Assembly: GCA_003990765.1 (NCBI GenBank)
Contig: RBNJ01000066.1
Span: 1-44,645, forward strand
From: Jimgerdemannia flammicorona
Taxonomy: Eukaryota
Direction: 5' to 3'
Length of the DNA stretch: 44,645 nucleotides
Both the position numbers and the translations under genes were made by a program. Shown one piece after another: positions 2,452-34,916 of the stretch (the stretch's first letter is position 1; every line of letters begins with the position of its first letter). The notes beneath the pieces are model-generated. The model searched no databases, was not told the DNA's origin, and was given only the letters and a program-made list of their open reading frames with translations.

Positions 2452-3995
2452 TGTAACAGTAATCTCAAAATGATGACATCAGTATAGGAGACAGCCTTTC
2501 CTCACAAGCCACCAGATCGGAGTACAAGGAGATCATACAGCATATGAGATGAGCAATAATGACCAACTGTGAGTCATTGTGACCACAGTACAAGCATCCT
2601 AAAGAATATAAAAGAAGGATCAAGGAACTACAGTAGTAGCAACCAATAAGAACCACCAATCCCAAAATAGCTCAAAGACTTACTATAAATGAAATGCCTG
2701 CTGCCTGCCAAACCTCAAGGTCAAGGAATTACCAAGGCATCTCAGTCGAGGAAAGGATGTTCTAAGACATCAGAAGAGCTATAAGGACCCACTCAAGAAG
2801 GACTCTTAGTATCAACCTGGGTACTGCAGATCTCTATCACTTTATCCTCTACCACTATGAAATGGAAACAAGGATCACCATTGCTACTGAATACCTCCAA
2901 ATGTGGCAGGAGTATGAAATAGAAAACCTCCTCTGCTGGGAGTTCTCACAGGCCAGCCCTCAAGAGCTACAAGATGCCACTCCTATGGATATATGCAAGA
3001 CAAGAATGGCTAAGAAGATCTATTAGATCTTCAGGCATACACTATGGTCGATCCCCAACTTGGAGTATGTTAGAGTTTCAGACTTCAGAGATCTGTTATC
3101 CTGCTGTATCAATGCACTAGAAGCCAGGGTGACTACAGAAGCCCAGTTCACTATCACCCTCAATAGTGATGAAGTAGAAGACTTCTGGTATCCCATCCTT
3201 CAGGACAACCCAGACCAATTCCTGCAAGGATTGATCTCAGTATTCCAAGGCCCAAGCATCCAGGTTAGACCTCTCTAAGATCTCACATTTGTTCCTTATT
3301 TTGTAGAAGAGAACCTCATAGATTGGAGAGCTTCCAATTTCCCTACCGAATGTGATGACATCATCAGCAATGATGTCATTCTGTGTGACATCGAAGTACA
3401 TGAAAATGATGAATTCATGGATCTCATCTCCTTCAGTGATGATGATGATGATGAAACCCCCATGGTCCTGAACTTTCTGCTCTAAGTTCTTTGTTATACT
3501 GAATAATACCAGTACCAGTATTTTGATGTAACACCAGATAATGTCAATACTGATATTCTGAGGTGATGCAAAATTGTTCCAGCACCAGTATTCTGATATA
3601 ATACTGAATTATACCAGTATTCTGAACCTATACAAACATCAGTATTCTGAACCTATACAAACATCAGTACTGACCCTGGAACTTAGTAGTTTTAGTTATT
3701 GGAATTTATATTTAGCTTTATATCTTAGCAACTATTGAATTATATTTTGTATAAATATTCCTCTTATTTCCTCTGAAATAAAGTCAGTTAAGTTTCAGTC
3801 AAGTTTACTTATACACAATCTCTTGCAAGCAATCTAAGAGATAACAAGACAGTTAAGATAAGAAGTTTGAGGACTATAAGACTTTAGGAAGGCACTCCAA
3901 TAAGAACTTGCTTATAACAATCTTGAGTTAGTCTAAGAGATACACCTTGAAGAGAATCTGGTATATTTGAAGAACTCAGTGACTACTATGTGACA
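2452..3995 (+). repeat. 5' LTR of copy B (1544 bp)
   Basis: Starts TGTAACAG, ends TGTGACA; colinear with 9676-11194; carries an extra ~25-bp tandem unit at about 3615-3665. Confidence 0.95.
2544..3485 (+). pseudogene. LTR-encoded accessory ORF (U3 region), about 310-340 codons, unknown function, acidic C-terminus
   Basis: One frame runs through the LTR (includes ORF-track 3060-3278); interruptions are TGA/TAA/TAG explainable as CGA/CAA/CAG; start codon uncertain (2544, 2559 or 2694). Confidence 0.75.
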
Positions 3996-9320: not shown

Positions 9321-9665
9321 AATGTGATGACTGCCCATGAGGTTCTAGTCTACAAATCATAACAGCATGTCCCGTGACTAGCAGGCTATCTGTCTGGACC
9401 ATTCTCTAAGAGATATGGCACTGGTAACTACTCATTCATGAGACTTTCAAAGTCAGAGAAGTTTGAACCATCAACTGATTGGTCAAGATCAGAATCAGGC
9501 CCTTACTCTATATGAAGGGAGCAATCCTTCACCATCATGCCAAAATACAAAGGAAAGATGCCAGCCCATAAATACCACTTTTTGACCCCTTGCCAGAGGT
9601 TATGGGATCAGCAAATTTTTCAGGACTGGACCAATGAATAAGGATGCTTGAGAAGATCCTTATTC

Positions 9666-9675
9666 AGAAGGAAGA
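9666..9675 (+). promoter_or_regulatory. Polypurine tract of copy B
   Basis: AGAAGGAAGA immediately before the 3' LTR. Confidence 0.75.
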
Positions 9676-11194
9676 TATAACAGTGACCTCAGAATTATGA
9701 CATCAGTACAGGAGATAGCCTTTCCTCACAAGCTACTAGATCAGAGCACAAGGAGATCATATGATATATGAGATGAGCAATGATGACCAATTGTGAGTCA
9801 TTGTGACCACAGTACAAGTATCCTGAAGAATATAAAAGAAGGATCAAGAAACTGCAGTAGCAGCAACTAATAAGAACCACCAATCTCAAAATAGCTCAAA
9901 GACTTACCACAAATAAAATGCCTGCTATCTGCCAAACCTCAAGGTCAAGGAATCACCAAAGCATCTCAGTCGAGGAAAGGATGTTCTAAGACATCAGAAG
10001 AGCTATGAGGACTCACTCAAGAAGGACTCCTAGTGTCAATCTGGGTACTACAGATCCCTATCACTTTATTCTCTACTGCTGTGAAATGGAAACAAGGATT
10101 ACCATTACTACCAAATACCTCCAAATGTGGTAGGAGTATGAAATAGAAAACCTCCTCTACTGGGAGTTCCTACAGGCCAGCCCTCAAGAGTTACAAGATA
10201 CCACTTCTATGGATATATGCAAGACAAGAATGGCTAAGAAGATCTATCAGATCTTCAGGCATGCACCATGGTTGATCTCCAACTTAGAGTATATTAGAGT
10301 TTCAGATTTCAGAGACCAGTCATCCTACCATATCAATGCACTAGAAGCCAGGGTGGCTACAGAAGCCCAGTCCACTATCACCCTCAATACTGATGAAGTA
10401 GAAGACTTCTGGCATCCCATCCTTCAGGACAATCCAGACCAATTCTTGCAAGGATTGATCTCAGTATTCCAAGGCCCAAGCATCCAGGTTAGACCTCTCT
10501 AAGACCCCACATTTGTTCCTTATTTTGTGGAAGAGAATTTCATAGATTGGAGAGCCCCCAATTTCCCCACCAAATGTGATGACATCATCAGCAATAATGT
10601 CATCCCATGCAATATTAAAGTATATGAAAACAATGAATTCACAGATCTCATCTCTTTCAGTAATGACAATGATGATGAAGCCCCAATAGTTCTGAACTTT
10701 CTGCTCTAAGTTCTTTATTACACTGAATAATGCCAGCACCAGTATTTTGATGTAATACTAGATAATACCAGTACTGATATTCTGAGGTGACATGAAATTA
10801 TTCCAGTATCAGTATTCTGATGTGATACTGAATTATACCAATATCCTGAACCTGTACAAATATCAGTACCAATTCTGAAACTTAGTAGTTTTAGTTATTG
10901 GAATTTATATTTAGCTTTATATCTTAGCAACTATTGAATTATATTTTGTATAAATACCCCTCTTATTTCCTCTGAAATAAAGTCAGTCAAGTTTCAGTCA
11001 AGTTCACTTACATACAATCCCTTGCAAGCAATCTAAGAGATAATAAGACAGTTAAAATAAGAAGTTTGAGGACTATAAGACCTTGGAAAGGCACTCTAAT
11101 AAGAACTTGCTTATAACAAACTTGAGTTAGTCTAAGAGATACACCTTGAAGAGAATCTGGCATATTTGAAGGACTCAGTAACCACTATGTAACA
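9676..11194 (+). repeat. 3' LTR of copy B (1519 bp), containing the second copy of the accessory ORF (about 9768-10709)
   Basis: Colinear with 2452-3995; ORF-track 10209-10502 and 10527-10709 are in one frame. Confidence 0.95.
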
Positions 11195-12156
11195 ATACTA
11201 TTATTTATATTTTTCTAAAATTTAGAGAGAATCTAATTATTTAAATATATATAAGCTGTCAATTATTTATATAAAGTTTATTTTAATAAATATAATATAT
11301 AAATATACTTATAATCTTCTTAATTTAGATATATCTCTTCTTTGTTTCTAAATTTCTCTTATTTCTTCATTATAGTAGCCCAGTCAGCATTCAGTCACTG
11401 CTATATCTCTGATAAGCTAACTATACTAATTATTTCAAAAATATTATCATATTAGAATTTTTATAATAATTTCTTAAATTTGATTTTGATAATGACTATA
11501 TAAATCTAAAATAAATAAAATATGATTAGATCTATAATATATAAGTAAAAAATACTCTTATTATATAAACTTACTATAGTGATAGTAAATGCTGATATTC
11601 TTCTATTTAGCATTTTTAATTAATACAATTGAAATAAACTGAATAATATCTTTAATCTATGATATAGTTTATAATTGAGATATATAAAGACTAGTCAAAT
11701 AATCTCTTTAAATATTATATCAGTATTGATTCCATTAACTGTATAGTCCTTGAACTTGGCTTATTATATAACATTAAAGTTAAAGGTCTTGTTAATTAGA
11801 TCTGCTAGAAGGCTGAACTTAGAACTATATTTTTATAGGTAAAAAATATCTTATCAGAATCAAACATTAATTATTTATACTAGTAGTCCTTGTTGAGCTT
11901 ATAAATATTCTAAAGAGCAGAAGTGAGCTCAGAGATAAGTTCAGCATTAACAATATTAAGAGTCTGTCTCCTCATATTACTTGACTAATAGATGATTTAT
12001 AGATGAAAGATAATTAGAAAATATCAAATATATATAAAAGAGAAGAGTATATATAAGTTAATATATCTTCAAATATTTCACAATTTGATCCTTAGTAATC
12101 AATATATTAATATCAAAATCTATACTATTATATATATTTTTTTAAGATATCCTTCT

Positions 12157-12157
<1 letters not shown>

Positions 12158-12188
<31 letters not shown>

Positions 12189-12960
12189 GACTCTTAGCTC
12201 TGCAGATTTTTATTAGAAAAGAACCTAGACTATATAGACTAAAACCCTCTCCTACCTCTCTCTCTCTCTCAAATACTGTACTCTTATTAACTTAGACTTA
12301 TTATTATTCAGCAGCTCTACTATACTAGATGCAGTAGAGCTTAATGTAGTCTATATCTCATTCTATATACCATACTCTCCCTACTACTAGAGAGAAAATA
12401 ATAATATATCAACAACTGAAAACATATACCCAAAACTCCAATATATATATAAGACCATATAAGAGCTAGATAATAAAGTCTCTGCTATCTCAAATAGAAT
12501 AATAGGTAAAGAAAAACTCCTTTAAAAGATATAAAACAGTGGATAGTACTCAGAATAAATCAAATTAAATCAAATTTGCCTCTAATTTAATTTAATTTAA
12601 ATATTCAAATCAAATTGAGGTCCAATTTAATTTAAAGTCCAATTTGAATCTAATTTTTCAAAATTCAATAACTCAACCAAAATATATCTAAATTTAATAA
12701 ATTTTAGCTTATTTAATATATCTTATAATGAAGAATCTAATATAATAAATAATATTAAATTTGGACATATTTCTATAGAGTTATTATGTTTTAAATTTGG
12801 GATAAATATTTTAAATTGAATTAGACTCTAATTTAATTCAAATTCAATTTAAATAACTCTCAATTCAATTTAATTTGAATTAATTTAATTTATTTAAGAG
12901 AACTAATAGTGGATAGAATCTGGTTCTCTCTGATAAAGTAAGTAAAGGACTGACATATCC
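12158..12960 (-). mobile_element. Degenerate 5'-truncated copy of the poly(A)-tailed retroposon family, interrupted by a MITE
   Basis: Poly-T at 12158-12184 followed by the reverse complement of about 36655-37050 (gaacctagactatatag...aaaaccctctcc; cagtggatag...tggttctc...gtaaaggact). Confidence 0.8.
12544..12905. mobile_element. Non-autonomous hAT-like MITE (about 362 bp)
   Basis: Imperfect TIRs (TAGTACTC..AATAAATCAAATT / AATTTATTT..GAGAACTA), 8-bp TSD ACAGTGGA (12536-12543) and ATAGTGGA (12906-12913); the empty site ACAGTGGG is present in other copies of the host retroposon. Confidence 0.8.
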
Positions 12961-13890
12961 TTATACTTCTCTTTATTAAATTATATATTAATAATAATTA
13001 TATATTTAAGTAACTCAAGCTTAGTAGTGTACTCTTAATTAGAATATATATCTTTTAACTTTATTTCTTATTCTCTAAGAAGTTTTAAATAGTAAAGTAT
13101 TATAAGAGAATTTTGAGCTTAAATAATAAAAGATAAAGTTGTTAAATAATAGATATAATAGTAGATTTTATCTATTTTGAAATTTTGACTTATATATTAT
13201 ATAAGTATAGAGATATAATAATAAGTATAAGAGAGGTAAAAAGGGGGAATAAGAGTGAGAGAGGATATATTAAAGAACTATACTTTATATTATCAATGAG
13301 AATTACTTATATAATAATTAGTATATTGATTAATATATGTTGATAAATATATTAGTTAGTATATATTAATAAGCTTAGTATATATAGTTAGGATATATAT
13401 TGATATATAAATAGCTTATATATATATATACTAGTATATATTAGCTAGTATTATATATTAATAAATTATTGATCATATATATAGCTAGTATATATTAGCC
13501 AGCATATACCAGTATATATTAATAAGCTTTCAGTATATGATATATATAATTAGTATATATTTGAGTTATTAATAATAAGCTCAATACAATATATATACTA
13601 AGTCTCTTGAGCTTAAATTATATTATTAACTAGTTATATTGAACTTCTTAATAGGTCTTAAGCTTCTTAAATTATTATGGATTATTACTTAATATAGTAG
13701 TAATTGGAAATTAGTATATTTTAACCTTTTAAGCTATAGTTATATATATAGTATTTATATATATATCTGTTGAATTCTATAAATTTCTCCATATAATAAA
13801 CTTATAAAGATATATATTATAATATAAAGATATAACTGAATGTTGTACTTTTTTTTTTTTTACTTTTATAGTAAATAATATAATTACTAT

Positions 13891-14374
13891 TGTGATGGTT
13901 GATCCAAATTAGTAATATGAAACAGGGGAATCAGACATTTGATCATGGTACCTGAACCCAATCCCCGATATAGTATAGCCTTATAAATAGCAGTTATATT
14001 TCACAAGTATAGAAACTTTAGCAACCGTAGAAATTCTACAGATGTAAAATATTTCATGATTGTAAAGATCTTAACAAATATAGAGGATTTACACTTGTAG
14101 AAATTGACTCACAGGAAATGTAGTCATAATTTAGCCACCTTATAGCTAACAAAACTATATAAATAACCCAGTATCTTCAAGTAAATAAACCTCAGATCGA
14201 AATAGTTCAAAGCAAAGAGATAGCAAAGGAACTAGTAAGCCTGTAGGCAGATACACTTTGAACTCACCCACTCTCCCCTGCAACTTCAAGAGACTCTGCG
14301 AGAGTCAGAACAGTCAAGTTTTCAAGATACAGAAATCCGACATACTTCCAAGAGTAAGCATCTGCTACATTACA
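13891..14374 (+). repeat. 5' LTR of copy C
   Basis: Direct repeat of 20147-20630; about 22 differences counted by eye; internal ~17-18-bp degenerate tandem repeats at about 14010-14105. Confidence 0.95.
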
Positions 14375-14488: not shown

Positions 14489-17400
14489 ATGGATATGAGA
14501 CCACTAGTATTCCTTAGATATACCTAATATAAATCGATCATCACCTTCATTGATGATTTTGAGCAGTATGCCACTGTAAGGACCCTGACAGCAGCACAGC
14601 AAGTAGCCCTCATGCCCTTCAGCCTACGAGGTCCTGCCAGAGCAGTATTCACAGCCATAACCCATGTAGGAAATAATACTGATGCTATACTGATAGCATA
14701 GAAGACCTGGCTCTGAAATACATATTACACAGACAAGATCAAGCAAGCCCTGAAGAATCAGCTCAATACAATATGTCAAGGAATGAGTGAGGACCCAAAC
14801 ACATTCTATACCAGAATTCGATATCAGATAATTCTTGTAGATTATGCTGCTGCTATCCAAGATCAAATAGTCGAAGCAACCTTCATGAAAGGAGTGTATC
14901 CAGAAATAGCCATGGCCATCCACTCATCACCAGTGATTCTGGATCTGCCGCAGAAGGTCACCTATGCTCAGCGATACTAGATAGCCAGACATCCACAAGA
15001 CCATACAATAGAAAGGGTCACAGGAGTCAGAATCGAGGCACCCAAGGCAACCAGCGTGATCCCTACCACAATGATCAATCAGAACACACCTCAGCCAAAA
15101 GCTACAGAGCAGCAAAAGAACAGTGACCCTATGGAGGAACTTGCCAAAAGGTTTGCCAAAATGACTACCCACCTGGGAGATGTGGTAAAGGAAATTCAAG
15201 GAAGAGACTGCTGCCCCATCCAGAAGTTCGCCACCACTGCAGACAAGAAGAAAGGCACCTGCTATACTTGTGGAGAAGAAGGCCACTACTCTTATAAATG
15301 CATGAGGGAAACCAAACACAAGGCTCAACCAAGTAATGCCACATGAAACAAGGAGCAGGCCAATATAATTACCTTCGAGGAGATTGGAGATTCTGATGAA
15401 GAAGAATGGGAGGCCTACCCAGCTCAGACCACCAAGAAGGATGCTCACAAAGAACCCTACAAGAGACCACCAGGAAGACCCAAGAAGAACCCAGTGGAAA
15501 AGCAGATGGAAACTGCTACAGAAAGCCAAGCCGAAGAGATAGACCAAGATACAGAGCTGGAGCAAGCAGTTCAAGATATCATCCGAGAAACCACTCCAGC
15601 CAGCAAAGGAGAAAAAGAAAAGAAGCTTCACAAGACCAAGACCTTCAAGTATGATATCTTCAAGGACCTCAGCCAACAAAAAGTCAATGCAACCTTTGGT
15701 CAGCTTGCAGAAATCCCAACATTCAGACAGCAAATGAGGTTCAGACTTGTCGAAACAACTAAGGAACAAGGATGGAAGATAACTGAGGCCAATAATGCTC
15801 AAGAGAACTCAGAAGAAGAAAGTGAGGACAACTGCAAAACCTCTGCATATGCAACATGCCAAATCGAGGATAGAATCTTTGAGGCCATTATTGATACAGG
15901 AGCAGGAGGATGTCTCCTCAGCAAGAAGGCAGCAGACTGCCTAGGTTGGGATGTAGAAGAAGCAACTAAGCTGGTGTTTGTCACAGCTGATGGTACAAGA
16001 GCCACACCTCTGGGAAAGATCCAAGATGTTCCCATCAAGATTAGAGGAGCAACCATCTCAGTAGATGTAATCGTAACCAATGCCACCAACTATGACATCC
16101 TCATTGGCAATCAATAGCTTCACAAAGCCAAGGCAGTAATCGATCTCAATGCTCAGAAGATGCAGATCACCTACCGGGGACAGAAGATACGAATTTCCAT
16201 CAATGTTAACAAAGGAGTCCTGCCTGACATGGAGGAAGAAGAGAACGAGCAAGAGGAAGCTTATATGGTAACTACTCCAAAGAAGAAGAAAGTCGGATGG
16301 ATGAGTGAAGAAGAATGGTGTAAGAAGATCGCAGAAGGCTATGCACTACAAGGAGTCTGTCCTCACAGTATCAAGATGTACTGCATGGAGTATATCAATG
16401 ATTGCTACCAGTGCACCATTGGAATCAGGAAGATCCACCAGGAAAGAAGGCAGAAAGCTCTCGAAAAACAGATCAGGGAAGAAAAGAAGGAGGAAGATGA
16501 TGAACCACTAGCCCTTCTGGAGGACAGTGATAATGAAGAAGAAATCAAGGTCAAGATTCGAAAGATCCACCCTGATGCAGTCTTGCCAGAATACAAGTCA
16601 GAAAATGCAGCAGGAATGGACATCGCTACAGTAGAAGAGGCCATACTGGAACCCCAGACAACTACCCTACTTGCAACCAGATTGGAGATGACCATCCCAA
16701 AGGATCATGTCGGGATTCTCAAGACAAGAAGCAGCCTGGCTAGAAGTGAAATTACAATTGAAGGAGGAGTCATCGATTCAGACTACATTGGAGAAATTCT
16801 ACTCATCGCTAGAAATCACAATCCTACAATCCCATTTCCAGTCAAGAAGAAGGACTGATTGGTACAAATGTTGATCTTTCCAATCCTACAACCAAAAATC
16901 ATGGAAGTTAAGAAGCTGGAGGAAACAAGGAGAGGAAAGAAAGGATTTGGATCCACAAGAAGAGGAGTATTCGCTAACATCAAGATCACCGAACTTGAGC
17001 ATAAGAAGGAGAAAAACACAAGCAAGCACAGCTACACCATCGGAAATGAATTTCCACTCAAGAAAGAACTCAAGAAAATACTCCATGAATTCGAGGACAT
17101 CCTTGCCACAGATTTCAAGGACATCAAAGGAAAGACCCCACACTACTATTATGAAGTAGACACTGGAGACATCGAACTAATTTATCAGAAGGCAAGACCC
17201 ATCCTGCCAGCCTACAGAGAATGGCTCAGAGAAGAAATCAAGCAGATGGAAGAAGCCAGCATCATTAAAGAAGTAAGCAGCCCCTGGTCCTCACCTGTTA
17301 TACTAGCCCCGAAAAAAGGTAGCAAGCCTGGAGAATTCACCCCAAGACTCTGTGTTGACTACAGAAAGCTCAACATGGTTACCAAGAAGGATTGCCAACC

Positions 17401-19663
17401 ACTGCCCCTCATCAATGACATCCTCATAACACTAGGAGATGAAGCACAGTACTACAGCACCTTGGACTTATACTCAGGATTCCACCAAATCGGACTCACA
17501 GACATGGCAAGTGAAAAGTCAGCTTTCATCACTCCAGACAGAACCTACATCTACCTATGAATGCCATTTGGAATATGCAATGCACCAGCAAGCTTCCAGT
17601 GAATGATGAACAAAATCTTCTGCTATGACATGGGAAGATGGATGATAGTCTACGTCGATGATGTAATCATCTATAGTAAGACACCTGAGGAACATCTGCA
17701 GCACATATAGCAGATAATGGAGAGACTAAGACAACATGGCCTTTACATCAAACCCAAGAAGTGCAAGTTCGCAGAAATCGAGATCTCGTATCTTGGCCAC
17801 ATCATCAACCGAGATGGAACACACATGGACCCCCTCAAGATACAAGCAGTGGCAGCATACCCAAGACCCACCACTGTTACAGAAGCCCAAGCCTTCATGG
17901 GACTCACCTCCTATTATTGTAGATTTATTAGAGGATTTTCTAATATTGTGGGACTAATCTATGAACTTAACAAGAAGGATACCAAGTTCCAGTGGACTGG
18001 CAGACAACAAGCATTTGACGAATTCAAGGTCAGACTGACCCAGGCACCTATCCTCAGAAGACCTGACTGGACTCAAGAATTCATCCTACAGACTGATGCA
18101 AGCGCACAAGGACTAGAAGCAGTTCTAGCTCAAAAGAAAGACAAAGTAGAGTATGTCATAGCATACCTCAGCTGCGGAACCCAAGGAGCTGAGAAAGAAT
18201 ACGAATCCTACAAGTTGGAATGCCTTGCAGTCATCTGGGCCATAGAAAAGTTCCACTACTACTTGGCTGGAAGATACTTCACCATCCAAATGGACCACTC
18301 AGCTCTCACCTAGCTACTGACAACTGGACAACCCAAAGAAATCTATGCCAGATGGATAATGAAGTTGCAAGCTTATGACATAACCATCGTACATTGCTCT
18401 GGAAGAACTAATACCAATGCAGATGCTCTCTCATGGACACCCCAAAGGACCCCACCCCCACAAAATCGCCATGAATAAGGAGCTCTACTATAGAATTATC
18501 ACATATCTGGGACAGTGAAAAATGCCCCAACATCTGGAAGAATGGACACAAACGATTATCAACAGAACATGGAAACAATTCGAAACCGATGGAGAAACAC
18601 TAAAGAAAGGAAAACTACTAGTCATACCAGAACACAAGAAGGAGCAAGCAATGAAATCAGTACATGAACTTGGCCATCTAGGAGGAACGAATACATACGA
18701 TAAGGCAAGAAGAACAATATGGTGGCCAGGGATGGAGGAAGATATCAGACAATTTGTCAAGACCTGCGATAAATGCCAGAAACAGAAACAAGATCAATGA
18801 AATCAAGCCCCAGGATCAGCACATATAGAACCAGTACCATTTGCCCACATTGTAATGGATGTAATTAGCCCTCTACCCTTGACTTTGACTGGCAACTGGT
18901 ACATAATTGTCATCATAGACCTCTTTACAAAATGGATAGAAGCAGGACCCCTTATGGAAGCCAATGTACAGTCAATTGCTGATTTCTTCCACAAGGAAAT
19001 TATCTGCTGGTTCAAGACCCCAACACAAGTAACTACAGATAGAGGAACCAAATTCATGAACCAGTTCTCTATAAGAAGTACAAGATTCAGTATATTTGGA
19101 CTACAGCATATCATCCTCAAGGAAATGGATAAGTAGAAAGGACCAACAAAATCCTCAAGAACATTATTGCCAAGATCTGCAATAACTACGAGAACTGGGA
19201 TCACTATCTGCTAATAGCATTATCTGCTCTCCAAGATATCCAATCACAAAGTACCCACTTTACTCCTCGAGAAATGCTGTTTGGAGAAGAATGTTCTCAG
19301 AGAACTCTGTCATCCAATGGAGATGCTATATGGAAACATGTGGACATGGAAATATGGAGACTACACCAAATCAGGAAGAAGGCTGAGGATTACATAATGA
19401 AGGTGCAGACACTACAACGGAGGAATGTGGAAAAGACCCACAAATCCTTGGAGATTATCAAAATAGGAGACAAAGTCCTAGTATATCGGAATATGGTAGA
19501 AGCTTCATGGTCACGAAAATTGGAGCCCAAGTGAGAAGGACCTTACCTTGTACAAGATATAAAAGAGACCACCTTTTGGCTACGAAAAACCTCAGGCACA
19601 ATCATCCCCACTACCATCCACTGAAACAGACTCAAGAAATACCATGACCAGCTAACAAAGTAA
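14489..19663 (+). pseudogene. gag-pol of copy C, disrupted by stops
   Basis: CCHC knuckle CYTCGEEGHYSYKC, protease IIDTGAG, dUTPase, RT (LCVDYRKLN, YVDD), RNase H (LQTDAS), integrase HHCC (HELGHLGG..CDKC), DDE core, KLEPK.EGPY; no chromodomain seen. Confidence 0.95.
16544..16960 (+). other. dUTPase domain within pol of copy C
   Basis: AAGMDI, RSSLA, GGVIDSDYIGEI, D.LVQM, RGKKGFGST. Confidence 0.95.
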
Positions 19664-20105
19664 TGCAGCTACCCTCAAGATCACTAGTGCTGCCCAACAA
19701 GCCATAGAGAGACAGTAGTATTCCACCGAACCACCAACAATGGAGGAATCCTTTGATAGTATACAGAGTATAGTCCAGACTCACCTGTTATGAATTTCGC
19801 ACTTCAAGGCCTACCAGATGTGAACCGAGTTCCAGGAGTACTTCAAGCTAAGACAACTACTGAATTCAAATCCGCAGATGGGAAAAGAAGACTGGATCAA
19901 AGAATGCCAGCTCACCTACACTCAGATCACAATTGCCAAGAGAGTGCACAAATTATTTAAAGATGATGAACCAGCTTTAGCTCATCTCTGAGAAGTAATT
20001 CTAAGGGATTTTGGACAAATCAGGAGACAACATTGGAAGAATGTAATGGTACAGATTACACAGTACAAGAAGATACAAATTGTAGAAGCCTGGGAGTTTG
20101 AGTGA
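19644..20105 (+). pseudogene. Accessory ORF (~150 aa) between integrase and PPT, homologous to the LTR ORF of copy B
   Basis: ATG overlaps the integrase end; the frame reads MEESFDSIQ...QEYFKLRQLL...IAKRVHKLFKDD...RDFGQI; stops are C>T-derivable. Confidence 0.75.
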
Positions 20106-20146
20106 ATAGGATACTTCAGAGATGAATCACCTATTTAGGAGGAAGT

Positions 20147-20630
20147 TGTGATAGTTGATCCGAATTAGTAATATGAAACAGGGGAATCAGACATTTGATC
20201 ATGGTACCTGAACCCAATCCCCAATATAGTATAGCCTTATAAATAGCAGTTATATTTTACAAGTGTAGAAACTTTAGCAACCGTAGAAATTCTACAGATG
20301 TAAAATATTTCATGATTGTAAAGATCTTAACAAATGTAGAGGATTTACACTTGTAGAAATTGACTCACAGGAAACGTAGTCATAATTTAGCCACCTTATA
20401 GCTAGTAACACTGTATAAATAACCCAGTATCTTCGAGTGAATAAACCTTAGATCGAAATAGTTCAAAGCAAAGAGATAGCAAAGGAACTAGTAAGCCTGC
20501 AGGCAGATACACTTTGAACACACCCACTCTTCCCTGCAACTTCAAGAGACTCTGCAAGAGTCAGAACAGTCAAGTTTTCAAGATACAGAAATCCGACGTA
20601 CTTCTAAGAGTAAGCATCCGCTACGTTACA
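20147..20630 (+). repeat. 3' LTR of copy C
   Basis: Direct repeat of 13891-14374. Confidence 0.95.
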
Positions 20631-21343
20631 CTATATATATAACTACTACATATTAATTTTTACTAAAATTTCTTATCTTTCATATATAAAAAATATTATT
20701 ATAATGTAATTTTTTTTTATAAATCTATATCAAACTATTAATATGACTATTATCTCAGTTATATATCTTAATAAAAATCCTATATAACTCTTATTAAGGT
20801 ATACTTAATCTACTTAGATGTGACTTTTTCTTGATATCTCAAGATCTACAAAACCTACTCATTTTCATTAAGATTCTGTATTTTTTCTTTAATATAAAGA
20901 GTGGAGTTATATATTTTTTTCATATAGGAGTAACTATTTTTCCTTATTGGCAAATTTGCTTGCTCAACCTAATTGATTAGCTGTAGTTAGCTTGTTGACC
21001 TCTGATTCATCACATTCAGCCTATACAAAAATTTAACTCAGGATCACATATATATCTCACTATGAGTTAATCCTTAGTATGACTATAGAATGGACAAAAG
21101 TAAGTACTTAGAGAAATATGCTAGTAACTGAGGTAAAAGCAAGTATCTGATACAGGAAGTATGTAAGTAAACCTTCTTTCAAAAAACTGTTCTTATACAG
21201 GATACATACAATATAAGTGGCTAAACTATCAAAGATAAGCAAGCCTTTATTTTCTATTTATTTTCAACACTTTATTTAAAACTCTCTTACTCTTACTCAC
21301 ATATCTTTTAACTGGTTTCTTATACTGGTCTTGGTTGCTTTTA

Positions 21344-21389
21344 AGCCAACTGATGAGCCCCTTGAGTAAGAGTAAAACTGGTCTAGGTT
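21344..21389 (+). ncRNA. Degenerate type I hammerhead ribozyme (Penelope-like minimal form)
   Basis: AGCCAA-CTGATGAG-CCCCTT GAGT AAGAG-TAAAACTGGTC-TAGGTT; restoring transitions gives CTGATGA...CGAAACCGGTC with stems I and II. Confidence 0.6.
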
Positions 21390-23739
21390 GTAGTTACACT
21401 GTTATACCTCTTAGCTTTGTAATAACATAGGCATATGACTTTGAAATAAAATATTATATTAAAGACAACACTGAAATATGATAAAGTGTGAAAAGGAGAA
21501 TAGAGAGGTCGCATTCTGCATGTGTCATGCATCCTGTCTATGCAGTTCAACATGGTTGCCTTTGGAGAGCCAAACCTGATCACAGCTTACCTCTGAACCT
21601 ACATCTCCCTCCTAACGTACTCACCACACCTAATCTCTAAGCTCTTCCCACACCTATGCCACTGCATCACCATGCACGCACAATCTCAACCATGGGCACA
21701 AGCTGCAAGATACCCTACGATGGCAATGACCAGCAGGAGACAATGCAATCACCAATCCAGACTGCGTGAGAACATTATTCTGGTGGAGGAGTATGACAGG
21801 AATTGACATACAGGTATGTGCGGGATACGGTAGTGCTAGACCAGGGTGGGTGGGAGCTATATACTTGTGAGAGCGTTGTTCCCCATTTGGCCACTGAGGA
21901 GGCAGGTGGAGATGAAGGGGTTTACCCAATGGGCGAAGAGGTTAGGGTTTGGGGATTGCTGGGATATATCATTTGGCATGTATAGGTTGCATCCCGCCAT
22001 TCCTACACACCACACTCACCCCCTGCATGAACTTTGCACAATAGCGAATCCAACGATCATCAGCCTTGGCCAGCTGCATACCAGCGTGAAGTCCGCCATG
22101 TGTTAAGGCTCTTTATCTGTTGGATGATCATGGTGTTGCAATCCATCGATCATATATGTTTTTGTTTGGGTACTTTTGGGCGCACGGCTAGATGGTACAA
22201 TTGAAATGATTAAATGTCAAAGCCTGGTTTGAGAGGGTACAAAGAATATTGAAATAACGACCTTCGATCGTCCTGTATTCATCAGATTCCAAGACATGGG
22301 TACGTTTAATTTCATTCTGTCACTTCAAAACAATATTCTTGCATCTCCGAGACCAATTCTTTCCCCGCTCTCTATTCTAATTGACACCGCCCCAGTACAG
22401 CCCCCACAAGAACGTCCTCCTTCACACCCTCGATCACATATCCAAAGATTCGAATCTCTCATGCACCCACCTCAATCCCCACTCAGGATTCGTCTTCCGG
22501 ATAGGCATAGGCATTGGCATTGTGTATTTCATCTACTCGTATAAGGGACTCGGATGGACGGCCGGCCCACAAAAAGACATAGAGAGATGTGATAGTTCGT
22601 GATTGAATTTTTGTTCGAGCAATACGCAAAAGAAAGGAGTCGTCGGAAATATGAGGACACTCCGTTCACTTATCCGCAATGAACATTTGATATATATGAC
22701 CTTTTCTACATCTCAAAAATTAGGTGGCACTACTCTGCTGCGACTGGCTTGTCCTTTGGCGCAGTTGTCGTATTGCTGCTCCCGCCAATTTATTACGGCG
22801 AATCATGGTTCTATCTTCTACACTCTGTCGCCTGGCTCACAACAAACATCGTCCAATAGACGATTTTGTAACAATACCTGGCAAACCATGCATAGCTTAG
22901 AGGGAGACACCCTATTACGAATTCGAAATAAATAAAGTGCATATTCTTGTAGATCATCCGCATAAATAATTCTCTCCTAATCAAGGCATGGCGAATGTAT
23001 GGAAAGACCGAGAAGATGGTCAGATGGGTATATTTGCTCTTCGAAGACTTTCAGGAGGGAATGCTCTTGAGTTGCTGAGCGTCAACATTTTCAAATAACA
23101 TTCGCTGGTCGAGTGTCACCTTTCATTCTTACATTCTGTTGTGCGCATTTTTGACTCTTCGCTCGTACGTCACTTCTGAACCCTCATCTCCATCCATTCC
23201 TAAAACGGATGGGCTGGCTGCTTTATGGTAGGTGGGCGATTTATACATTGTGATGATTATTTTGACAATTATTTTCTCGGCGCAACACTCCTGTTGATAT
23301 TCGTTTTGGCCATTTGATTCATTTCTAGCAATTACCCTAGATCCCGTGCTGCCATAATAAATGCACGCATTCAATCAGAACCCTTTTTGCCATTACGTTT
23401 CTCTCTGATTTATACAGCTGTTCCGTCATTTCCCGAGTTCTGACCCCACGGCACTTTGTCGAACGATTATGTCATTGTATTATATTTCATTTTCCCATTC
23501 TAGAGAGGTGTTTAACTCCACACACTACACCTATTCTGACGCCATTGCAGATGGCAGTAACGGCAAACTGGCCCAGCTTGAGCAAGTACCTGCGCGGGTG
23601 GCGATGATGCGGGAGCCCGACAAACTACGAAACGAAGAATATATGTGAGTGCCGGGCCGCGAAAACGTTGAGAACAAAAACAGGTGTTGATGGTAGTGAT
23701 CGCCCGGAGAATCCAACATAACCTTAGAGATATGTGCAA

Positions 23740-24110
23740 GGTCTTAGCTATATCTGGAATGTTTTGTGAGATGAAGCTTTTTTAATTCTACTGGCTGCAA
23801 GTGTGTACAATACCTCGTGTTGATTGTAGGTGGCAAGCATGTCGGCCATGTGGCCGAATTCGACCTTTTCCTCGAGAATATGTTTGTCTTGATTCTTGCG
23901 GCCAAACGAGGAAAATACCGTAATATTTTTACTAGGGCCGTTGAGAGCATTACTAATTTAAAATGCTTTTCGAGGAAGGGAGTGGAGGACAACGCAAGAT
24001 CAACCAGTACACCTTGCAAAAAAGGGAGAGAATGTAATCACCACAGAATTCTCTCTCAAAATATCCTTCTGCCAAAAGATTACATTTCCTTTCGAAGACA
24101 TTTAAACTGA
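23740..24110 (-). pseudogene. Relic of a PD-(D/E)XK-like nuclease/CRN-type family gene (paralog 1)
   Basis: Minus-strand peptides LNVFERKCNLLAEGYFEREF.. and GRKNQDKHILEEKVEFGHMADML; nucleotide similarity to 25340-25460; frameshifted. Confidence 0.4.
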
Positions 24111-24355
24111 AATGAATATATCAGTAAATATATAATGTGAAAGCAATACTGTATCAAGAAAAAAGCGGTAGGAGACACACAATTGTTCTGTTGCTAGTTC
24201 GATCTTCAATTCACCTATACAGTACTTATAAAAACGCATCTGGATCTCTATACCGATTGGCTGTAACATTATACACATGAATATATATTGCAGATTTTGG
24301 AATAAAGCATTCACTTTTGTGAGAACATGCTTGTTGATTTCATGTAAAGTCCATA

Positions 24356-24361
<6 letters not shown>

Positions 24362-24409
<48 letters not shown>

Positions 24410-24432
24410 TTGTTGTTGTTGTTGTTGTTGTT
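24362..24432. repeat. Poly(T) run plus (TTG)n microsatellite
   Basis: Directly visible. Confidence 0.95.
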
Positions 24433-24502
24433 GGAAGAGATATATGTACATAATATTTTTGATATTGGTATTGTGCATGTACTATAGGCAAGATTTATGA
24501 GT

Positions 24503-24662
24503 AGAATTACTTATACAATCATCAAAAAGTTAACCATTTTTTTGGGTCTGAAATGAAAAAAAGCAAGGCGAACTGAAGAGTTATGAACAGAATTACCTAT
24601 GCAATCATCAAAAAGTTAACCATTATTTTGGGTCTGAAATGAAAAAGCAAGACGAACTGAAG
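24503..24662. repeat. Two-copy tandem duplication (~86-bp period)
   Basis: AGAATTAC.TAT.CAATCATCAAAAAGTTAACC...GGGTCTGAAATGAAAAA..GCAAG.CGAACTGAAG occurs twice. Confidence 0.9.
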
Positions 24663-24849
24663 TAGGAATATCCCTTTCCCAATCTCCTTAACCTCTCACC
24701 ATCTTCCGAAGGTCTCCCACGAGGTAGTTGATCAAAGCCTGAAGGAAATGGTGGTGAGAAATGGTAGAGCCCAGAAGACAGCTACGAATTTGGATTCAAG
24801 ACTTACCTGCACATTCCACGCGGCACGAATGATGTCTCCTAACTTACAA

Positions 24850-25460
24850 TGTAAAAGAGACATGAACCGTCTGGAGCAGGTGGAGTCGGTATACCTCTCG
24901 TTTTTCAAGCATGAAAATCTTGATGGTACTCATATGGGTCTACATATAGCGGTAATGAATGTAATTAACTAGCATGCCACAAGGGGATACTATTTCATCA
25001 AAAAATTCTCTTCCAAGGTAAAAGATGTGCCGGATCTTTTCCCCCTTGACGGTAGTCATCATAAAGAGCATTCAGCATACTCTTTATGAAACGGGCAAGA
25101 TGGAAATTTATGCCGTAATACTTGGTTATATATCACACTCTTGGGGTTGGGCTATCAGGCCGCACCAATAGAGGTCGTTCTTTACATGTGGTGAGCAAGT
25201 CGACAGCGTTGCCATGGTCGTAATTCGGAAACGATGCGGAGGTATACCTAGGTCATTGGGAGTATTATTAAATTAAAATACATTGGGAGAAGGAAGTGAG
25301 GAGAAAGTCAACTCTACCTACCATACATATCGGCAAAATGTACCGATATTGAGTGCGCCTTGCAAAAGGGATGTGATGTAAGAAGCAAGATATTCTCCTT
25401 TGACATCCTTCGGCCAAGGGATTTATATTGCTTTCAAACGCATTTAGACTGAAACGACAA
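24850..25460 (-). pseudogene. Relic of the same PD-(D/E)XK-like family (paralog 2), multi-exon
   Basis: Peptides LNAFESNINPL, YDHGNAVDLL, HLARFIKSMLNAL, THMSTIKIFMLEKREVYRLHLL between GT..AG introns; frameshifts. Confidence 0.4.
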
Positions 25461-26167
25461 TTTTAGTTAGTACTATGTATAATCAAACAACACTGCATCA
25501 AAGATTGTCTTGTTGCTCCTTCAATCCACCGGATGACTTCTTTATCAGTTGGGAGAAGGCTTCAAATCGCGCAGGCCTACCCACCGACGTCGTGCTTCAA
25601 ATAGAGATATCTGTTTATAAACAGTGCGCAATTAATATCAAATAAAAATTTACTCTGCAAACGAAGGAAAAATACGCCAGATGTAACCTACCTCTTCAGA
25701 TGTAGTGCTAAAGAGTTGCTTGATGATGGTCTCGATATTGTACTGATTGGTGGTTCCAATATTTGGACAGTCAGCAACGAGGCTTCGCCATTGCCGCTCT
25801 GAAAATTCGAACTGGATTGGAGAGAGAGATCTAGTAAATTTTATATAAAATATTACAGTTTAATTAATATAATCATTTCTAATACCTACTCTGAGAATAT
25901 TGATGTCTGAGCTTGTGATAAATTAAATTAGTGATTTAGTATTTATTCACATTTACTCAGAGGTAATACGGATGATTGAACCTCGACCCATTGCACCCCT
26001 ATATCGGAAACCAACATCACATGTATGTATGTAGATGCCCATCACGAAGCAATCAGTCTGCTGACTACACTCTGACGAAATAGCCATCTCTTGTATAAAG
26101 TTCTCTTTTCCCTCTATACAAGAAACCTCACAAATCTCAACCTCGCTACACCTACTCTTTGTCTCCA

Positions 26168-27340
26168 ATGGGTTGTATTTACGCCGCCTTCCAGAACTGT
26201 GTCCTGTCTTTTGGCACCTTCTGCACCACGTTCATAGTCATGCTATTCACGGTTGTCCTGTTTCTGTACGAGCTGGCGCTGGGTGTGATGGGACTCAAGG
26301 AGAAGCCGAGGAAGCCGAGGAAGCCGAGGAGCATTCTCATAACCGGTGCTTCGTGAGTGCTAGGCAGTGGTTTGGATTATCTGTTGAATTATTATTATTA
26401 TTATTATTTGTTTTTGACGAAAATAGAGCTATATGACATTTCTTATTGCCCATAGATCTGGTATTGGAAGGCAGCTCGCGTTGGAATATGCGGCTCCTGG
26501 AGTCATACCAATCTTACTGCCGAAAGATGGTGGTATGTCGAAAGCAAGTGTTAGCAGATCAAAAGAGTTATTGAGTGAATTTTGAAATGATATACTTTGG
26601 CCAATACATTAAACCTTTTTTTTTAGACCACCTTCATGATATCGCCAACCGATGCTCCACCCAAGGTGCTGAAGCTATAGAAGGAAAGCTCGATCTCTCA
26701 CGTGGCGACAAATTGGAGAATCTTTGGTTGAGGCAGCCAATAGGTATTATCGCTCAATGCGGTCATAGAGAATTTATCGATTTCTTCATCTGATCAATGG
26801 AGTACTTTGCTCTCTCCACCATAGATCGATCATGTCATCGCCAATGCTGGAAGCTCTGCCCTCGATTTGCGAGCTTATATGTGGCATGATATGTACAAAC
26901 ACATTGTGGACATCAACATCACCTCTGTTTATGGGGGGAAGAACGATTTTGTACCACTGATTTGCGTACAGAATTTTTGATGATGCTAAAGTCTTTTGGC
27001 TTGCATTATTTTTAAGCGACCATTATGCCTCTTCAAGATGGAGATGGCCAAATTTCCATCATCAGTTTATCACTTTATTCTATGGCATGGCCAACATGAT
27101 TTGTATAATCAAAGCAAGTCAGCTCCCACTGCATTTGCTCGTGATCTCCATCATATTGGGAAAAAGAGCAATATCTGGGTCAGTGGTAGGTTGTGCACGA
27201 CTCATACGGGGCCAGTTTATTGAAGTTATAATATTCCTATTATGGTGTTGGGAAAATCTAACCTCACTCGCCTATCTGGGCGTGACAGTTGTCACACCTG
27301 GACTCCCCTTTCAATCGAGTTGCAATCCAGTTTGCCCTTG
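26168..27340 (+). pseudogene. Short-chain dehydrogenase/reductase (N-terminal TM segment), probably degenerate
   Basis: ILITGAS|intron|SGIGRQLALEYA (TGxxxGxG), IDHVIANAG, VTVVTPG; later exons lose frame; 3' end approximate. Confidence 0.75.
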
Positions 27341-27654
27341 ATGATGTATGTCAATTCTCGTCATGTGCAAAATATATAATAAAATAAATATTGATGAAAA
27401 ACCTTATCAAAAACAATCGTATCAGATGATTTAAGACACACTTTATGGTGAGCTAATTATTCTATTTGGTTACGGCAATACCGACTTCTTCCCTCGGGAC
27501 TTCAATCCTTCAACTATTATCACGTTCCCACCCGTGAGTTCGGAGAGTCGACTTTGGCAATGATCAAATACACAAATTTCCGAGATCTATTTTGGTCACG
27601 TCTGCTGTCATCTCGGTTTCACAATGTAGCTGCCAAAGAATTCGTAAAGTTCTG

Positions 27655-28160
27655 ACAAACGTACCGAAGAGATTCAACTTCGTCAAGGTCATGTTCAGAG
27701 ACGCTGGTAGGGCTCTGGCGCCCCGCCGATGTTGTTCACTGAAGTTAAACAAAACGAGTAAACAGTGAAAATCGTGAGCTTGATTGCATTATACAGTTAT
27801 GGACGATGGTTCACACAGTTCCGACATACTTTGGAGCTTCGACTTGTTCAAAGTCGTGCTCCGCTTCAGAGATTCAGTTAGGTTATTAGCCAACACGGAT
27901 CGAGCAAACACGTGCAGATCAGACAGCTGCAAACAATGACTCCCAAAGTTTTAACTTACATACATCCGAGAACCAGTTTTGTCAAGGTCTATGAATAGGA
28001 AATGTGAGTACCAATTTGCTAATAAAGAATTAGTGAGCATGCACAAACCATGAGAATACTTCCATCACGCAATTAGAAACAACGGTTCACAGTAATATCA
28101 TGCTGGTCGCCTTCTGCTCCAGATTCTCGCCAAGGGCGTGGGTGAAGCTTTCCTCTAAAC
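27655..28160 (-). pseudogene. Fragments of a ribonuclease-inhibitor-type LRR gene (short exons)
   Basis: NNIG..GARALPASLNMTLTKLNL, LTESLKRSTTLNK, TLTKLVLG, each followed by a GT donor. Confidence 0.45.
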
Positions 28161-29326
28161 GTATAGTGGCAGTTAGCTGTTAGTCAATTGTAGTTAGCCA
28201 CTTTGCCAATCTGTCATTCCGCATCCAGTCTCATTCACCACCGTTACCTTCGATGAAACAATAAGTAAAACACAAATGCGCGCTGGTTAGCGAATGTGAT
28301 TATGCTAACTGTGTGGCTGTGACGCTACATCCTGGATGTACAAAAGTGTAGCATCGGTTTCTGGTGTAGCGCCCACTCGGCGAAATTACAAAATCGACAC
28401 TTTGCAAGGCCTACCAAACTAGCTACACATTCAATCAATTGAATGTAGACTTCAACAGCACTGTCGGAGTCGACATTCCAGCAGCTTCGGATGACATTGT
28501 TGAATGCTGTTGGCGCACCAGGGAACAGCTAGTCACCGATGGCGACACCTTGTTGTGGGACACCGACTATCGACTGCCACAGCAGGCTTTATAAGTCCAT
28601 TAAAATTAGGCTGCTTAAGCCACGACGCGTGCGTGATAGAGCTGATAGAGAATCGTCGCGTATCAGACCAACAACTGAGGCCTATAAAGAGTAGCATTTG
28701 TTTACATTCGCAATTCCAATTTATTAAAATAAACGGTTCGAAAATACATATTGCTTGATTATCAACGATTCCGAGGCAAATCGAAACAGCCACGCGCATG
28801 TGTGCCAAGCAGCACTTTTTTCAGGACATGTACTAGGTGAACATTCCCAAAGACCATGGGGGCCAACGAAGTTGAAAACAAGACATCGACCCCGGCTGCC
28901 TTGGGAACGTCGAACGAAGTATGGCAACGTGGGACACGATGCCACTTGCCGTGGGATGCGGCGGAAAAGTTCCGATGGCAGCCGTGAATAGGTGCGTGCG
29001 AGCTTGACAATCGATTCAGGTGGCAAGCGTTGCATTATAAAGTTCAGCGTTTTTGGCGCTGCATAATTACCGTTTTTTCGATTTTCGATTTCGATTTCGA
29101 TTTTTTCTTTTTTTTTTTTTTTTTTCGGAGAGGCGGAGGAAGCATAGGTGATTTATTTGAAGACAAGGTGATAGGCTAGATCGGTTAAATGACGTGCTTC
29201 ACATTTTAGTTAAATCAGTGTTATGCATTTTCTAGAATGCGGTGAAGTCAAAAATATAATTTGTGTTTGTTTTTACATAATTATATTACACAATTACACA
29301 ATCGCTGCGCTATGCCGTTCCCACCT

Positions 29327-30188
29327 TTACAACGACGTGAAAGTGTACGAGTCAAACACGCCATAATTCGGGTATCTCGTGATACCTTCGGGGAACACTG
29401 GGGGGTTGCCATAATTTCCCATCCACCACAAGTTCTCGAGTGAGCAGAATGGTGTGAACCCGCCAGTCATTCTGGAATGGCCCCAAGCCTGCTTGGACTG
29501 CTTGACTTGGTTGCCGTTGATGAACCAGGTGGCGAGCCAGGAGCCGTTGGCGATGGTCTCGAGGCGGATGGAGAGGGTGTACCAGTTTTCGGAGGCGATG
29601 GAGATCCAGGTAGAGTCATTATTGTCCCAGTTGTCGCCCGAAGTCGATTGTGAAGTCATCACGCAGGTCATACGTGTGCTAGTCCTACTGAGGCCGAGCG
29701 AGGCGCGTGTTCTGGGAGAGCCATAGCTGTGGGTGGGTAGGGGGTGAACGTTGTTCAATATTTTGGTTCATTGTTAGCCTTGTCGACATTTTTTGGGTTG
29801 GAATATCTGATCCGAAACCTTACCCACACTCGAAGTCGAACTCCCTGTAATCGTTGTTGTGGATGAAAGCACCGATGCTGGTGATATCCCCCGCGTCAAA
29901 CAGCGGGATATACACACGCCAGCTATGCGTCCCCGCAAGCATGGTCGACCTAGTGTACTTGATCTTTGGTCTACAAATCGAGAACGGATCGACCTTGAAC
30001 ACGACAGCGGCGCCGTCGTTAGTCCCGATTTGGTCCAGTTGGATGCTATAGTTGCTGGGCCCGCCGCCGGCCTGCGATCCGTCCGCCCAGTTATCGAGAT
30101 TGTGGAAGGTTTCGTTAACAGAGACCGCCAACGCTGGTGAGACAGGAAGCGGCCAGAGCAAGATGAGAGTGAAGATTAGATATTTGAC
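29327..30188 (-). CDS. Secreted GH16-like glycoside hydrolase, 2 exons (about 30188-29824 and 29726-29327); start codon not found
   Basis: Hydrophobic signal-like N-terminus, EFDFE (ExDxE) catalytic motif, GT..AG intron 29823-29727 joins ECG|YG in frame. Confidence 0.75.
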
Positions 30189-30519
30189 AGTTTAATAGTT
30201 AATTGTTTTGGGCCGTGTCGTTTCACGGGGTTTTACAATTCACCATAAATGGGACAGCCTTATAGCAACTGCGTCAAATGGATAAGACGATCTGCGCTGT
30301 CATATTTGAAGCTTGTGAAAAGATTTCGCGTCGCCGTTCACGCAAAGCGCTACAATATCGTAATAATGGAGCGCCGAATGCAAGTCTGCTGCTACCTATA
30401 CCGCCAATTAAGGATTCTTTTATAAACAGGGCCGACTGTGCGGGCCATGAACAATATATAATGTATATTATACAATGCCCAGAGATAAAGAGCTCAAGAA
30501 TAGTATGAATAGAATAGAA

Positions 30520-34724: not shown

Positions 34725-34916
34725 CTATCTTTGGAGCCTGGGCGTGACAGAGGGAATGTTAACTTGGAAAATCTGCCGCATCACGTTGCATCCAGTGCGC
34801 CTGTCAACAGCAACGAAGGATGTGTGATTCGATGCCAGCGAGAACCGAAGTCCCATCATCACAATCTCGCGCTTCCTCGCTCTCTCCAACAAGATCGTTC
34901 CACGCGGCTTCTGCAT
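34725..34916 (-). pseudogene. Fragment resembling the C-terminal part of a VIT/VWA-domain (VWA5A-like) protein
   Basis: EIVMMGLRFSLASNHTSFVAVD motif; no intact upstream part before the AT-rich block at about 35270. Confidence 0.5.

Follow-up and report, generated by a model that had tools for sequence, protein, structure and literature searches.

The stretch of DNA under study is contig RBNJ01000066.1 of Jimgerdemannia flammicorona (hereafter the window, 44,645 nucleotides in full), which carries two complete, decayed long terminal repeat (LTR) retrotransposons of the Ty3/Gypsy type that we call elements B and C. Both lie on the plus strand, as do all features below unless stated otherwise. 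We find that the segment at 19644-20105, at the end of the pol gene of C, represents a genuine third gene in decayed form, named ORF3 for its open reading frame (ORF), and that a diverged gene of this protein family is present in element B, inside the unique 3' (U3) region of its 1.5-kb LTR, and thus in two copies. A preliminary description of this DNA had proposed an uncharacterised third gene shared by the two sister elements. We judge this gene to be real because uninterrupted relatives exist for each type, the profile of one type matches that of the other above controls, and two database proteins bridge the types. Our best overall explanation, which we hold to be probably correct if by no means secure, combines this third gene with a conserved junction at the LTR, exchanged ORF3 modules and a regulator-like role for the protein.

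The third gene in elements C and B

In element C, ORF3 occupies 19644..20105 and consists of 153 codons plus a stop, running from an ATG at 19644 to a TGA at 20103-20105. Its frame is +1 with respect to pol, whose end (TAA at 19661-19663) it overlaps by 20 nt, and 31 nt separate the end of ORF3 from the polypurine tract (PPT). Five premature stops fall in its frame (TAA at 19653, TAG at 19716, and TGA at 19791, 19821 and 19989), which is why this pseudogene is missing from a program-made list of ORFs; eroded codons had been named beforehand as the reason for its absence. Words resembling splice sites are also seen in C, with two GTAAGC in the unique 5' (U5) region and a CAG 16 nt before the ORF3 ATG, although this is motif spotting only and the pattern occurs six times in the element.

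In element B, the two copies of ORF3 span 2694..3485 in the 5' LTR (263 codons plus a stop at 3483-3485) and 9918..10709 in the 3' LTR (stop at 10707-10709). Premature stops begin at 2763, 3024 and 3276 in the first copy and at 9987, 10131 and 10500 in the second. A hidden Markov model (HMM) built from B-type relatives scores 464.6 over 2757-3482 and 466.0 over 9981-10706. The gene begins 242 nt into the LTR and ends about 265 nt before the word TATAAATA, and is thus within U3. Given that the LTRs are bounded by TG..CA, by the target site duplication (TSD) ATAC and by the PPT, and that ORF3 is found in both, the B copy sits wholly inside the LTR, as had been claimed. The reading frame itself is not remarkably long: 122-123 codons are open at present, or 170 if only the stops common to both LTRs are counted, whereas the longest ORF in shuffled LTRs measures 84 +/- 18 codons with a maximum of 187, such that length alone is weak evidence. 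A candidate ORF3 promoter, recognized by motif only, is the word TATAAAAG at 9831..9838 in the 3' LTR and 2607-2614 in the 5' LTR, located 80 nt upstream of the ORF3 ATG. No ATG occurs between about position 9860 and the start of the B ORF3.

The relationship between the two genes was originally described as a gapless register, QEY-x10-[P]Q-x19-AK-x22-DF. The strings quoted from C and B match the sequence exactly, and no gap interrupts the spacing. The bracketed P had been restored in B, where the codon reads TCA in the 5' LTR (2946-2948) and CTA in the 3' LTR (10170-10172), and the restoration was correct, as the relatives P0004, P0005, P0006 and P0029 carry P at this place. Over 62 residues, C shares 12 identities with the 5' copy of B (BLOSUM62 score 29) and 10 with the 3' copy (BLOSUM62 score 24).

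Far more informative are the relatives of each gene in protein collections. Those of the B type are uninterrupted ORFs of 215-271 residues with 53-76% identity (4 of 364 candidates), and those of the C type are likewise uninterrupted, with 68-82% identity and a full length of up to 153 residues in P0008 (11 of 12 candidates). When the C-type profile is aligned with the B-type profile by hhalign, the two match over 100 columns in the register first described and extend upstream of it, with a probability of 70.5%, an E-value of 3.9e-5 and a score of 38.7. This score is reached by none of 200 column-shuffled controls of the C-type profile (mean 14.2, standard deviation 2.6, maximum 22.1), and the reversed profile scores 17.9. 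The same register is recovered from database sequences only, with the window sequences left out (E 1e-4, probability 57.6%), and MAFFT yields it three times. Two proteins bridge the types: P0024 matches the C-type profile with a probability of 79% (E 1.6e-5) and the B-type profile with 92% (E 5.6e-7), and P0026 matches the C-type profile with 95.8% (E 6.8e-9). A core alignment of 88 columns and 21 rows is continuous apart from truncated ends and one site with an indel of one or two residues. Furthermore, in a six-frame search of the window, the HMM of each type picks the locus of the other, in the correct frame, as its best non-self match, with the exception of a comparably weak C-type match at 35659-35745.

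Several results count against homology. The two window sequences compared on their own are not significantly similar, in that their local scores of 41 and 37 are reached by 54 and 78 of 500 shuffles, respectively. The claimed pair of frames is not the best of the 36 possible for either LTR copy (tops 48 and 44, medians 32 and 30.5), plain HMM cross-matches are weak (independent E-values of 0.1, 0.78 and 2.9), and the hhalign probability is only 58-70% with profiles of low diversity (effective sequence number, Neff, 1.5-1.8). The first three of these results favour the view that C ORF3 and the B LTR ORF are unrelated, lineage-specific ORFs that resemble each other by chance. We consider such a coincidence highly unlikely given the distance between the profile score and its controls, the two bridging proteins, the nearly uninterrupted core, and the ability of each HMM to find the other locus in the right frame, bar the one weak match noted above. 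Thus, the expectation that the alignment would beat shuffled controls fails for the window pair alone and holds for the comparison of profiles. From these sequence comparisons, C ORF3 and the B LTR ORF are very probably homologous.

Host elements and the junction of PPT and LTR

Both retrotransposons were delimited by comparing the window with itself and by reading the element ends. Pfam matches give the order gag(CCHC)-protease (PR)-dUTPase-reverse transcriptase (RT)-RNase H (RH)-integrase (IN) between the LTRs, and this domain order, together with the LTRs, the PPTs and TSDs of 4 bp, places B and C in Ty3/Gypsy (Metaviridae). Element C matches zf-CCHC, an Asp protease, RVT_1 (E 3.6e-32), RT_RNaseH, Integrase_H2C2 and rve, and element B matches RVT_1, rve and Integrase_H2C2. 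A dUTPase domain (PF00692) lies between protease and RT in both elements (16550-16860 in C, E 2e-25; 6230-6620 in B, E 1e-25), and such a domain is already recorded for some fungal Gypsy elements in part of a published survey (PMC2864245). There is no Chromo match in the translated IN C-termini of C or B, so these elements do not qualify as chromoviruses. The ORF3 gene belongs to a narrow Ty3/Gypsy clade that has a dUTPase and lacks a chromodomain.

The 5' LTR of B (2452..3995, 1544 bp, TGTAACAG...TGTGACA) is 89% identical to the 3' LTR (9676..11194), with the TSD ATAC at 2448-2451 and 11195-11198. Sequence upstream of about position 3750 is assigned to U3 because TATAAATA lies at 3750-3757 and AATAAA at 3777-3782 of the 5' LTR. 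The B PPT, AGAAGGAAGA, is at 9666-9675, and a spacer at 9321..9634 stretches from the pol stop (TAA at 9318-9320) to the junction block discussed below. In C, the LTRs at 13891..14374 and 20147..20630 are 484 bp long, begin and end with TG..CA, and are 95.5% identical; the TSD is CTAT (13887-13890 and 20631-20634) and the PPT is AGGAGGAAG (20137-20145). Each U3 has short repeats of its own, located downstream of the LTR start, that may be enhancer or binding sites. Those of B, at 3492-3669 (and 10716-10890), comprise a 35-nt family and a 25-nt unit repeated 2.2 times, and those of C, at 14006-14110, comprise four or five GTAGAAAYT-like words identified by eye.

A third element, A, is a C-like fragment on the minus strand (232-2163) that is 77% identical to the C 5' LTR and gag. 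Its 3' end, where ORF3 would be expected, falls beyond the window. Elsewhere in the window, direct repeats of 1.1 kb that are 86% identical (35882-36999 and 43529-44645, the latter truncated where the window stops) flank a fragment of a piggyBac-like transposase on the minus strand (40546-41652; DDE_Tnp_1_7, E 1.4e-19, with a sub-threshold zf-Tnp_2 match). An inverted match of 73% over about 390 nt connects an AT-rich spacer at 12158-12546 with the end of a 1.1-kb repeat (36698-37077). Scans of the window for Rfam families and tRNAs gave no matches.

The preliminary description held that the LTR/PPT boundary had moved relative to the gene. This proposal lacks support, because a block that crosses the PPT and the LTR start is homologous in B and C. 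In C, this block (20103..20167) contains the ORF3 stop, the 31-nt spacer, the PPT AGGAGGAAG and the start of the 3' LTR, TGTGATAG, from 20147. Its counterpart in B (9635..9697) contains pre-PPT sequence, the PPT AGAAGGAAGA and the LTR start TATAACAG at 9676. The block is 63 nt long, spans the C ORF3 stop codon, the PPT and the first approximately 20 nt of the LTR, and aligns with a score of 36 that none of 500 shuffles reaches (17.0 +/- 2.4); for the stretch before the PPT taken separately, 12 of 1000 shuffles do as well as the real alignment. A scan of the whole window with the C block ranks the B junction first among matches outside C (score 36); the start of the C 5' LTR scores 34 and the next match 24. 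The junction of PPT and LTR start is probably ancestral and conserved between B and C. Therefore, it is probably the gene and not the boundary that is found on different sides, upstream of the junction in C and downstream of it in B.

The alternative in line with that description is that ORF3 stayed in place while plus-strand priming in B shifted to a new PPT further upstream, such that a lengthened LTR swallowed the gene. This model has the appeal of accounting in one step for a B LTR that is about 1 kb longer than that of C (1544 versus 484 bp), and the order pol-ORF3-R (R being the repeat region of the LTR) is identical in the RNAs of both elements. However, the model conflicts with the alignment just described, since the PPT of B falls within the similarity to C along with about 30 nt of preceding sequence and some 20 nt of the LTR start. 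It is also disfavoured by the region downstream of B ORF3, which has no second match to the C block and no relic PPT or LTR start. In addition, B places an unrelated spacer of 314 nt and then 242 nt of LTR before ORF3, whereas ORF3 of C overlaps pol. We regard a shift in priming as unlikely.

Even so, a conserved junction with a gene on either side of it faces difficulties of its own. The LTR-start part of the block is not significant alone (275 of 1000 shuffles reach its score), the homology of the junction as a whole rests on 63 nt, and related RT and IN could keep a PPT plus LTR terminus alike. Where ORF3 is placed is known from a single copy of each type. Finally, the LTR interiors of B and C do not align. 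A relic of ORF3 was also sought in the B spacer and not found; nucleotide scores in these comparisons are reached by 63-199 of 300-500 shuffles. Homology between the TATA and poly(A) regions of B and C was also considered and is unsupported, with a score reached by 126 of 500 shuffles. The B spacer (9321-9634) has no Pfam match, no HMM match and no detectable similarity to either ORF3 type.

The protein family, its divergence and its decay

Run exhaustively against 1.84 billion representative proteins, the joint HMMER profile recovers 11 at E-values up to 1e-3. Because all 11 are only 49-342 residues long, none of them is fused to pol. A word-indexed search that used the wider alignment as its query retained 18 of 6518 candidates; their sources are JGI or ENA contigs, 515-3003 nt in length, and no member was found by this search among NCBI or UniRef proteins. 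None of the relatives bears a protein name beyond ‘hypothetical protein’. Searches of Pfam, NCBIfam and PDB sequences returned only scattered sub-threshold matches, with all 22 members scanned against Pfam at E-values up to 1, and profile searches of PDB gave nothing below an E-value of 0.036. Thus, the family is narrow and is undescribed in the libraries searched. As none of the 22 members has a Pfam family, membership in the superantigen family is not indicated. Derivation of ORF3 from gag was rejected, given an hhalign probability of 0.1%.

The members share a core of about 90-110 residues with the pattern [QH]xY..G..L ... A[KR][KR][IV][HY].[ILV]F ... L..V...D[FI]..[LV]S, which is kept down to about 15-25% identity. 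A small helical, possibly nucleic-acid-binding protein had been proposed beforehand. A crude propensity scan gives a helix-prone core together with proline-rich tails. Transmembrane (TM) and env features had been reported as absent, and this is borne out by 19-residue Kyte-Doolittle means with maxima of 0.19-1.05 in 11 of 11 members tested and by the lack of an envelope family among the Pfam matches. In most full-length members the C-terminal tail is proline-rich, strongly acidic and furnished with bulky hydrophobic residues. The C-terminal halves carry a net charge of -19 to -29 in 6 of the 11 members tested; the value is -11 for P0026 and -3 for the 153-residue C-type P0008. B-type proteins end in ...LNFLL, and one distant member has a lysine-rich stretch followed by an acidic end. 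The N-termini of B-type proteins are rich in arginine (RRAMRTRSRR-like), a stretch that is not conserved in C-type or distant members.

The divergence of ORF3 far exceeds that of its host elements. Between B and C, identity is 50% for gag, 61.5% for PR-RT-RH and 66.7% for the IN C-terminus, but about 20% for ORF3, and the two ORF3 clades are approximately 3.8 substitutions per site apart in an 87-column tree made by a quick method, with long branches. Because ORF3 is so much more diverged than gag or pol, we favour module exchange: B and C probably acquired or exchanged ORF3 modules that had already diverged; recombination in the variable U3/3' region is one possible route. Very fast evolution of ORF3 in place may be an alternative. 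There are precedents for such exchange, as a study on bdelloid rotifers describes the sharing of ORF3 modules between retroelements (PMC5408684), and the fungal LTR element crapaud is portrayed in part of another report as having a modular and recombinant U3 (PMC10787394).

The copies in the window are relics. B and C are riddled with TAA, TAG and TGA stops, C also has two frameshifts, and both elements, including their ORF3 copies, are dead copies rather than recoded genes. Recoding of TGA was considered and is ruled out by the mix of in-frame TAA, TAG and TGA stops plus the frameshifts. Differences between the LTRs of an element are nearly all transitions (145 versus 5 transversions in B, 20 versus 2 in C), and the ratio of observed to expected CpG is 0.04 in B, 0.25 in C and 0.00 in the flank of 20% GC at 11200-13890, compared with 0.96 in 21000-35000. 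This pattern is consistent with deamination of methylated cytosines or with a process like repeat-induced point mutation acting at CpA. Every premature stop of ORF3 in the window falls where relatives have Q, R or W. The two LTR copies of B ORF3 differ at 24 synonymous and 44 non-synonymous codons, with 32, 18 and 27 differences at the three codon positions, and these differences are neutral decay.

It seems appropriate to question whether ORF3 has any role in the life cycle of the elements, or whether these ORFs are passenger DNA derived from fragments of a host gene family. The divergence just described speaks for passengers, and so does base composition in one of the two elements: in B, pol is richer in A than ORF3 is (AT skew of +0.25 versus +0.08 to +0.12). 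Two premature TAA stops are common to both B LTRs (2763/9987 and 3276/10500), which indicates either that B transposed with a broken ORF3, the gene being dispensable in cis, or that parallel mutations struck CpA sites. The composition of B ORF3 and its shared stops also count against our best overall explanation. If B did transpose with two stops in ORF3, a passenger would explain this readily, and the neutral look of the differences between LTRs would agree. However, neutral decay after insertion is expected for any LTR. A host gene family is also difficult to reconcile with only 11 representative clusters in 1.84 billion proteins and with the absence of members from NCBI and UniRef proteomes. 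Moreover, the core pattern persists at low identity, and in C the gene behaves as a resident, with an ATG that overlaps the pol stop and an A-richness like that of pol. A passenger origin is therefore improbable in our estimation.

Possible function and relation to known systems

Four features give ORF3 a regulator-like layout: the lack of a TM segment, the helix-prone core, the acidic and proline-rich tails, and the word TATAAAAG before the B ATG. By analogy with the regulator Tas of foamy viruses, we tentatively suggest that the protein might be a nuclear regulator of the expression of its own element. Such a protein would combine a folded N-terminal domain that binds DNA or chromatin with an acidic activation tail. 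In B as in C, its gene would come last in the genomic RNA, at the 3' end. Expression of C ORF3 would then need a subgenomic or reinitiated message, whereas B ORF3 could be transcribed from its own TATA word in U3, with the transcript ending at the poly(A) signal of the LTR. If so, every B-type LTR, solo LTRs included, would be an expression unit.

A bolder version of this proposal, to which we give less credence, is that ORF3 could be a transactivator encoded by a retrotransposon, playing in fungal Ty3/Gypsy elements the part that regulatory genes play in complex retroviruses. In the B lineage it would have become a self-contained transcription unit within U3, and its modules would be swapped by recombination. 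If true, each B-type LTR, and each solo LTR as well, would supply a trans-acting factor to the whole family.

Two observations tell against a regulator of transcription. No DNA-binding family was matched in the searches described above beyond HTH_Tnp_Mu_2 (E 0.016, 15.7 bits versus a cutoff of 20.5), a match that is confined to 2 of 22 members and lies outside the conserved core, and the C-type protein lacks a long acidic tail. It is conceivable, if rather doubtful, that ORF3 encodes a real accessory protein with another job, such as RNA-binding export or packaging in the manner of Rev or Rex, or antagonism of host silencing. Nothing links the core to DNA binding, the arginine-rich N-termini of B-type proteins would suit such a job, and retroviral accessory genes, the functions of which are surveyed in a review (PMC7264820), have a similar position at the 3' end. 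However, the arginine-rich stretch is restricted to the B type, and acidic, hydrophobic C-terminal tails suit activation domains better.

Given that one protein family flanks a conserved PPT junction on different sides in sister elements, the pair amounts to a natural experiment on the gain, movement and expression of accessory genes. Now that this small family is defined, any activity of its proteins in transcription or on chromatin can be assayed directly. Should the host prove to be an arbuscular mycorrhizal fungus, these proteins could be relevant to how the abundant, methylated Gypsy elements of that fungus are regulated.

LTR retrotransposons with extra genes have been described before, yet to our knowledge almost none of these genes outside env has an assigned role. 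The closest parallels are the additional ORFs (aORFs) and ORF3s of LTR retrotransposons, such as the sense aORFs that plant elements carry from pol to the 3' LTR and the varied ORF3s of bdelloid rotifers. As these are characterized in excerpts of two papers (PMC7264820, PMC5408684), C ORF3 is like them in being sense, post-pol, lineage-specific and apparently module-exchanged. A sense ORF between pol and the 3' LTR, the arrangement of the aORF-3S type, is present in C and not in B. A figure legend in a survey of fungal Gypsy elements likewise names an ‘additional ORF with unknown function’ (PMC2864245). The family described here differs from known aORFs and ORF3s in having no TM or env feature, no enzymatic domain and no Pfam match, and in the location of the B ORF inside the LTR.

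The LTR is an unusual place for a retrotransposon gene, and in the open-access full-text literature we found neither a retrotransposon case of a complete gene in an LTR nor a description of the ORF3 family. The best-known examples of a whole gene within an LTR come from retroviruses such as mouse mammary tumour virus (MMTV), whose sag gene encodes a type II membrane glycoprotein of a vertebrate retrovirus. A complete LTR-encoded ORF of this kind, in U3 and in both LTRs, is found in B only. Like sag, B ORF3 is located in the U3 of a long LTR (over 1.3 kb), upstream of the TATA box and twice per provirus. Unlike sag, ORF3 lacks a hydrophobic segment, a Pfam match and an env partner, and it resides in a retrotransposon.

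For the protein itself, the most instructive comparison might be with foamy-virus Tas (Bel1). For prototype foamy virus, one report (PMC12282171) places the DNA-binding domain of Tas in the N-terminal part, at 80-210, and its activation domain in the C-terminal part, at 250-290, and describes an internal promoter that belongs to Tas. ORF3 has no sequence similarity to Tas, as judged from the lack of a Pfam match, its C-type version is almost tail-less, and its DNA binding and activation are putative. By analogy, however, both would be small accessory proteins encoded at the 3' end of their elements, with an N-terminal domain followed by an activation-type tail and possibly with a promoter of their own.

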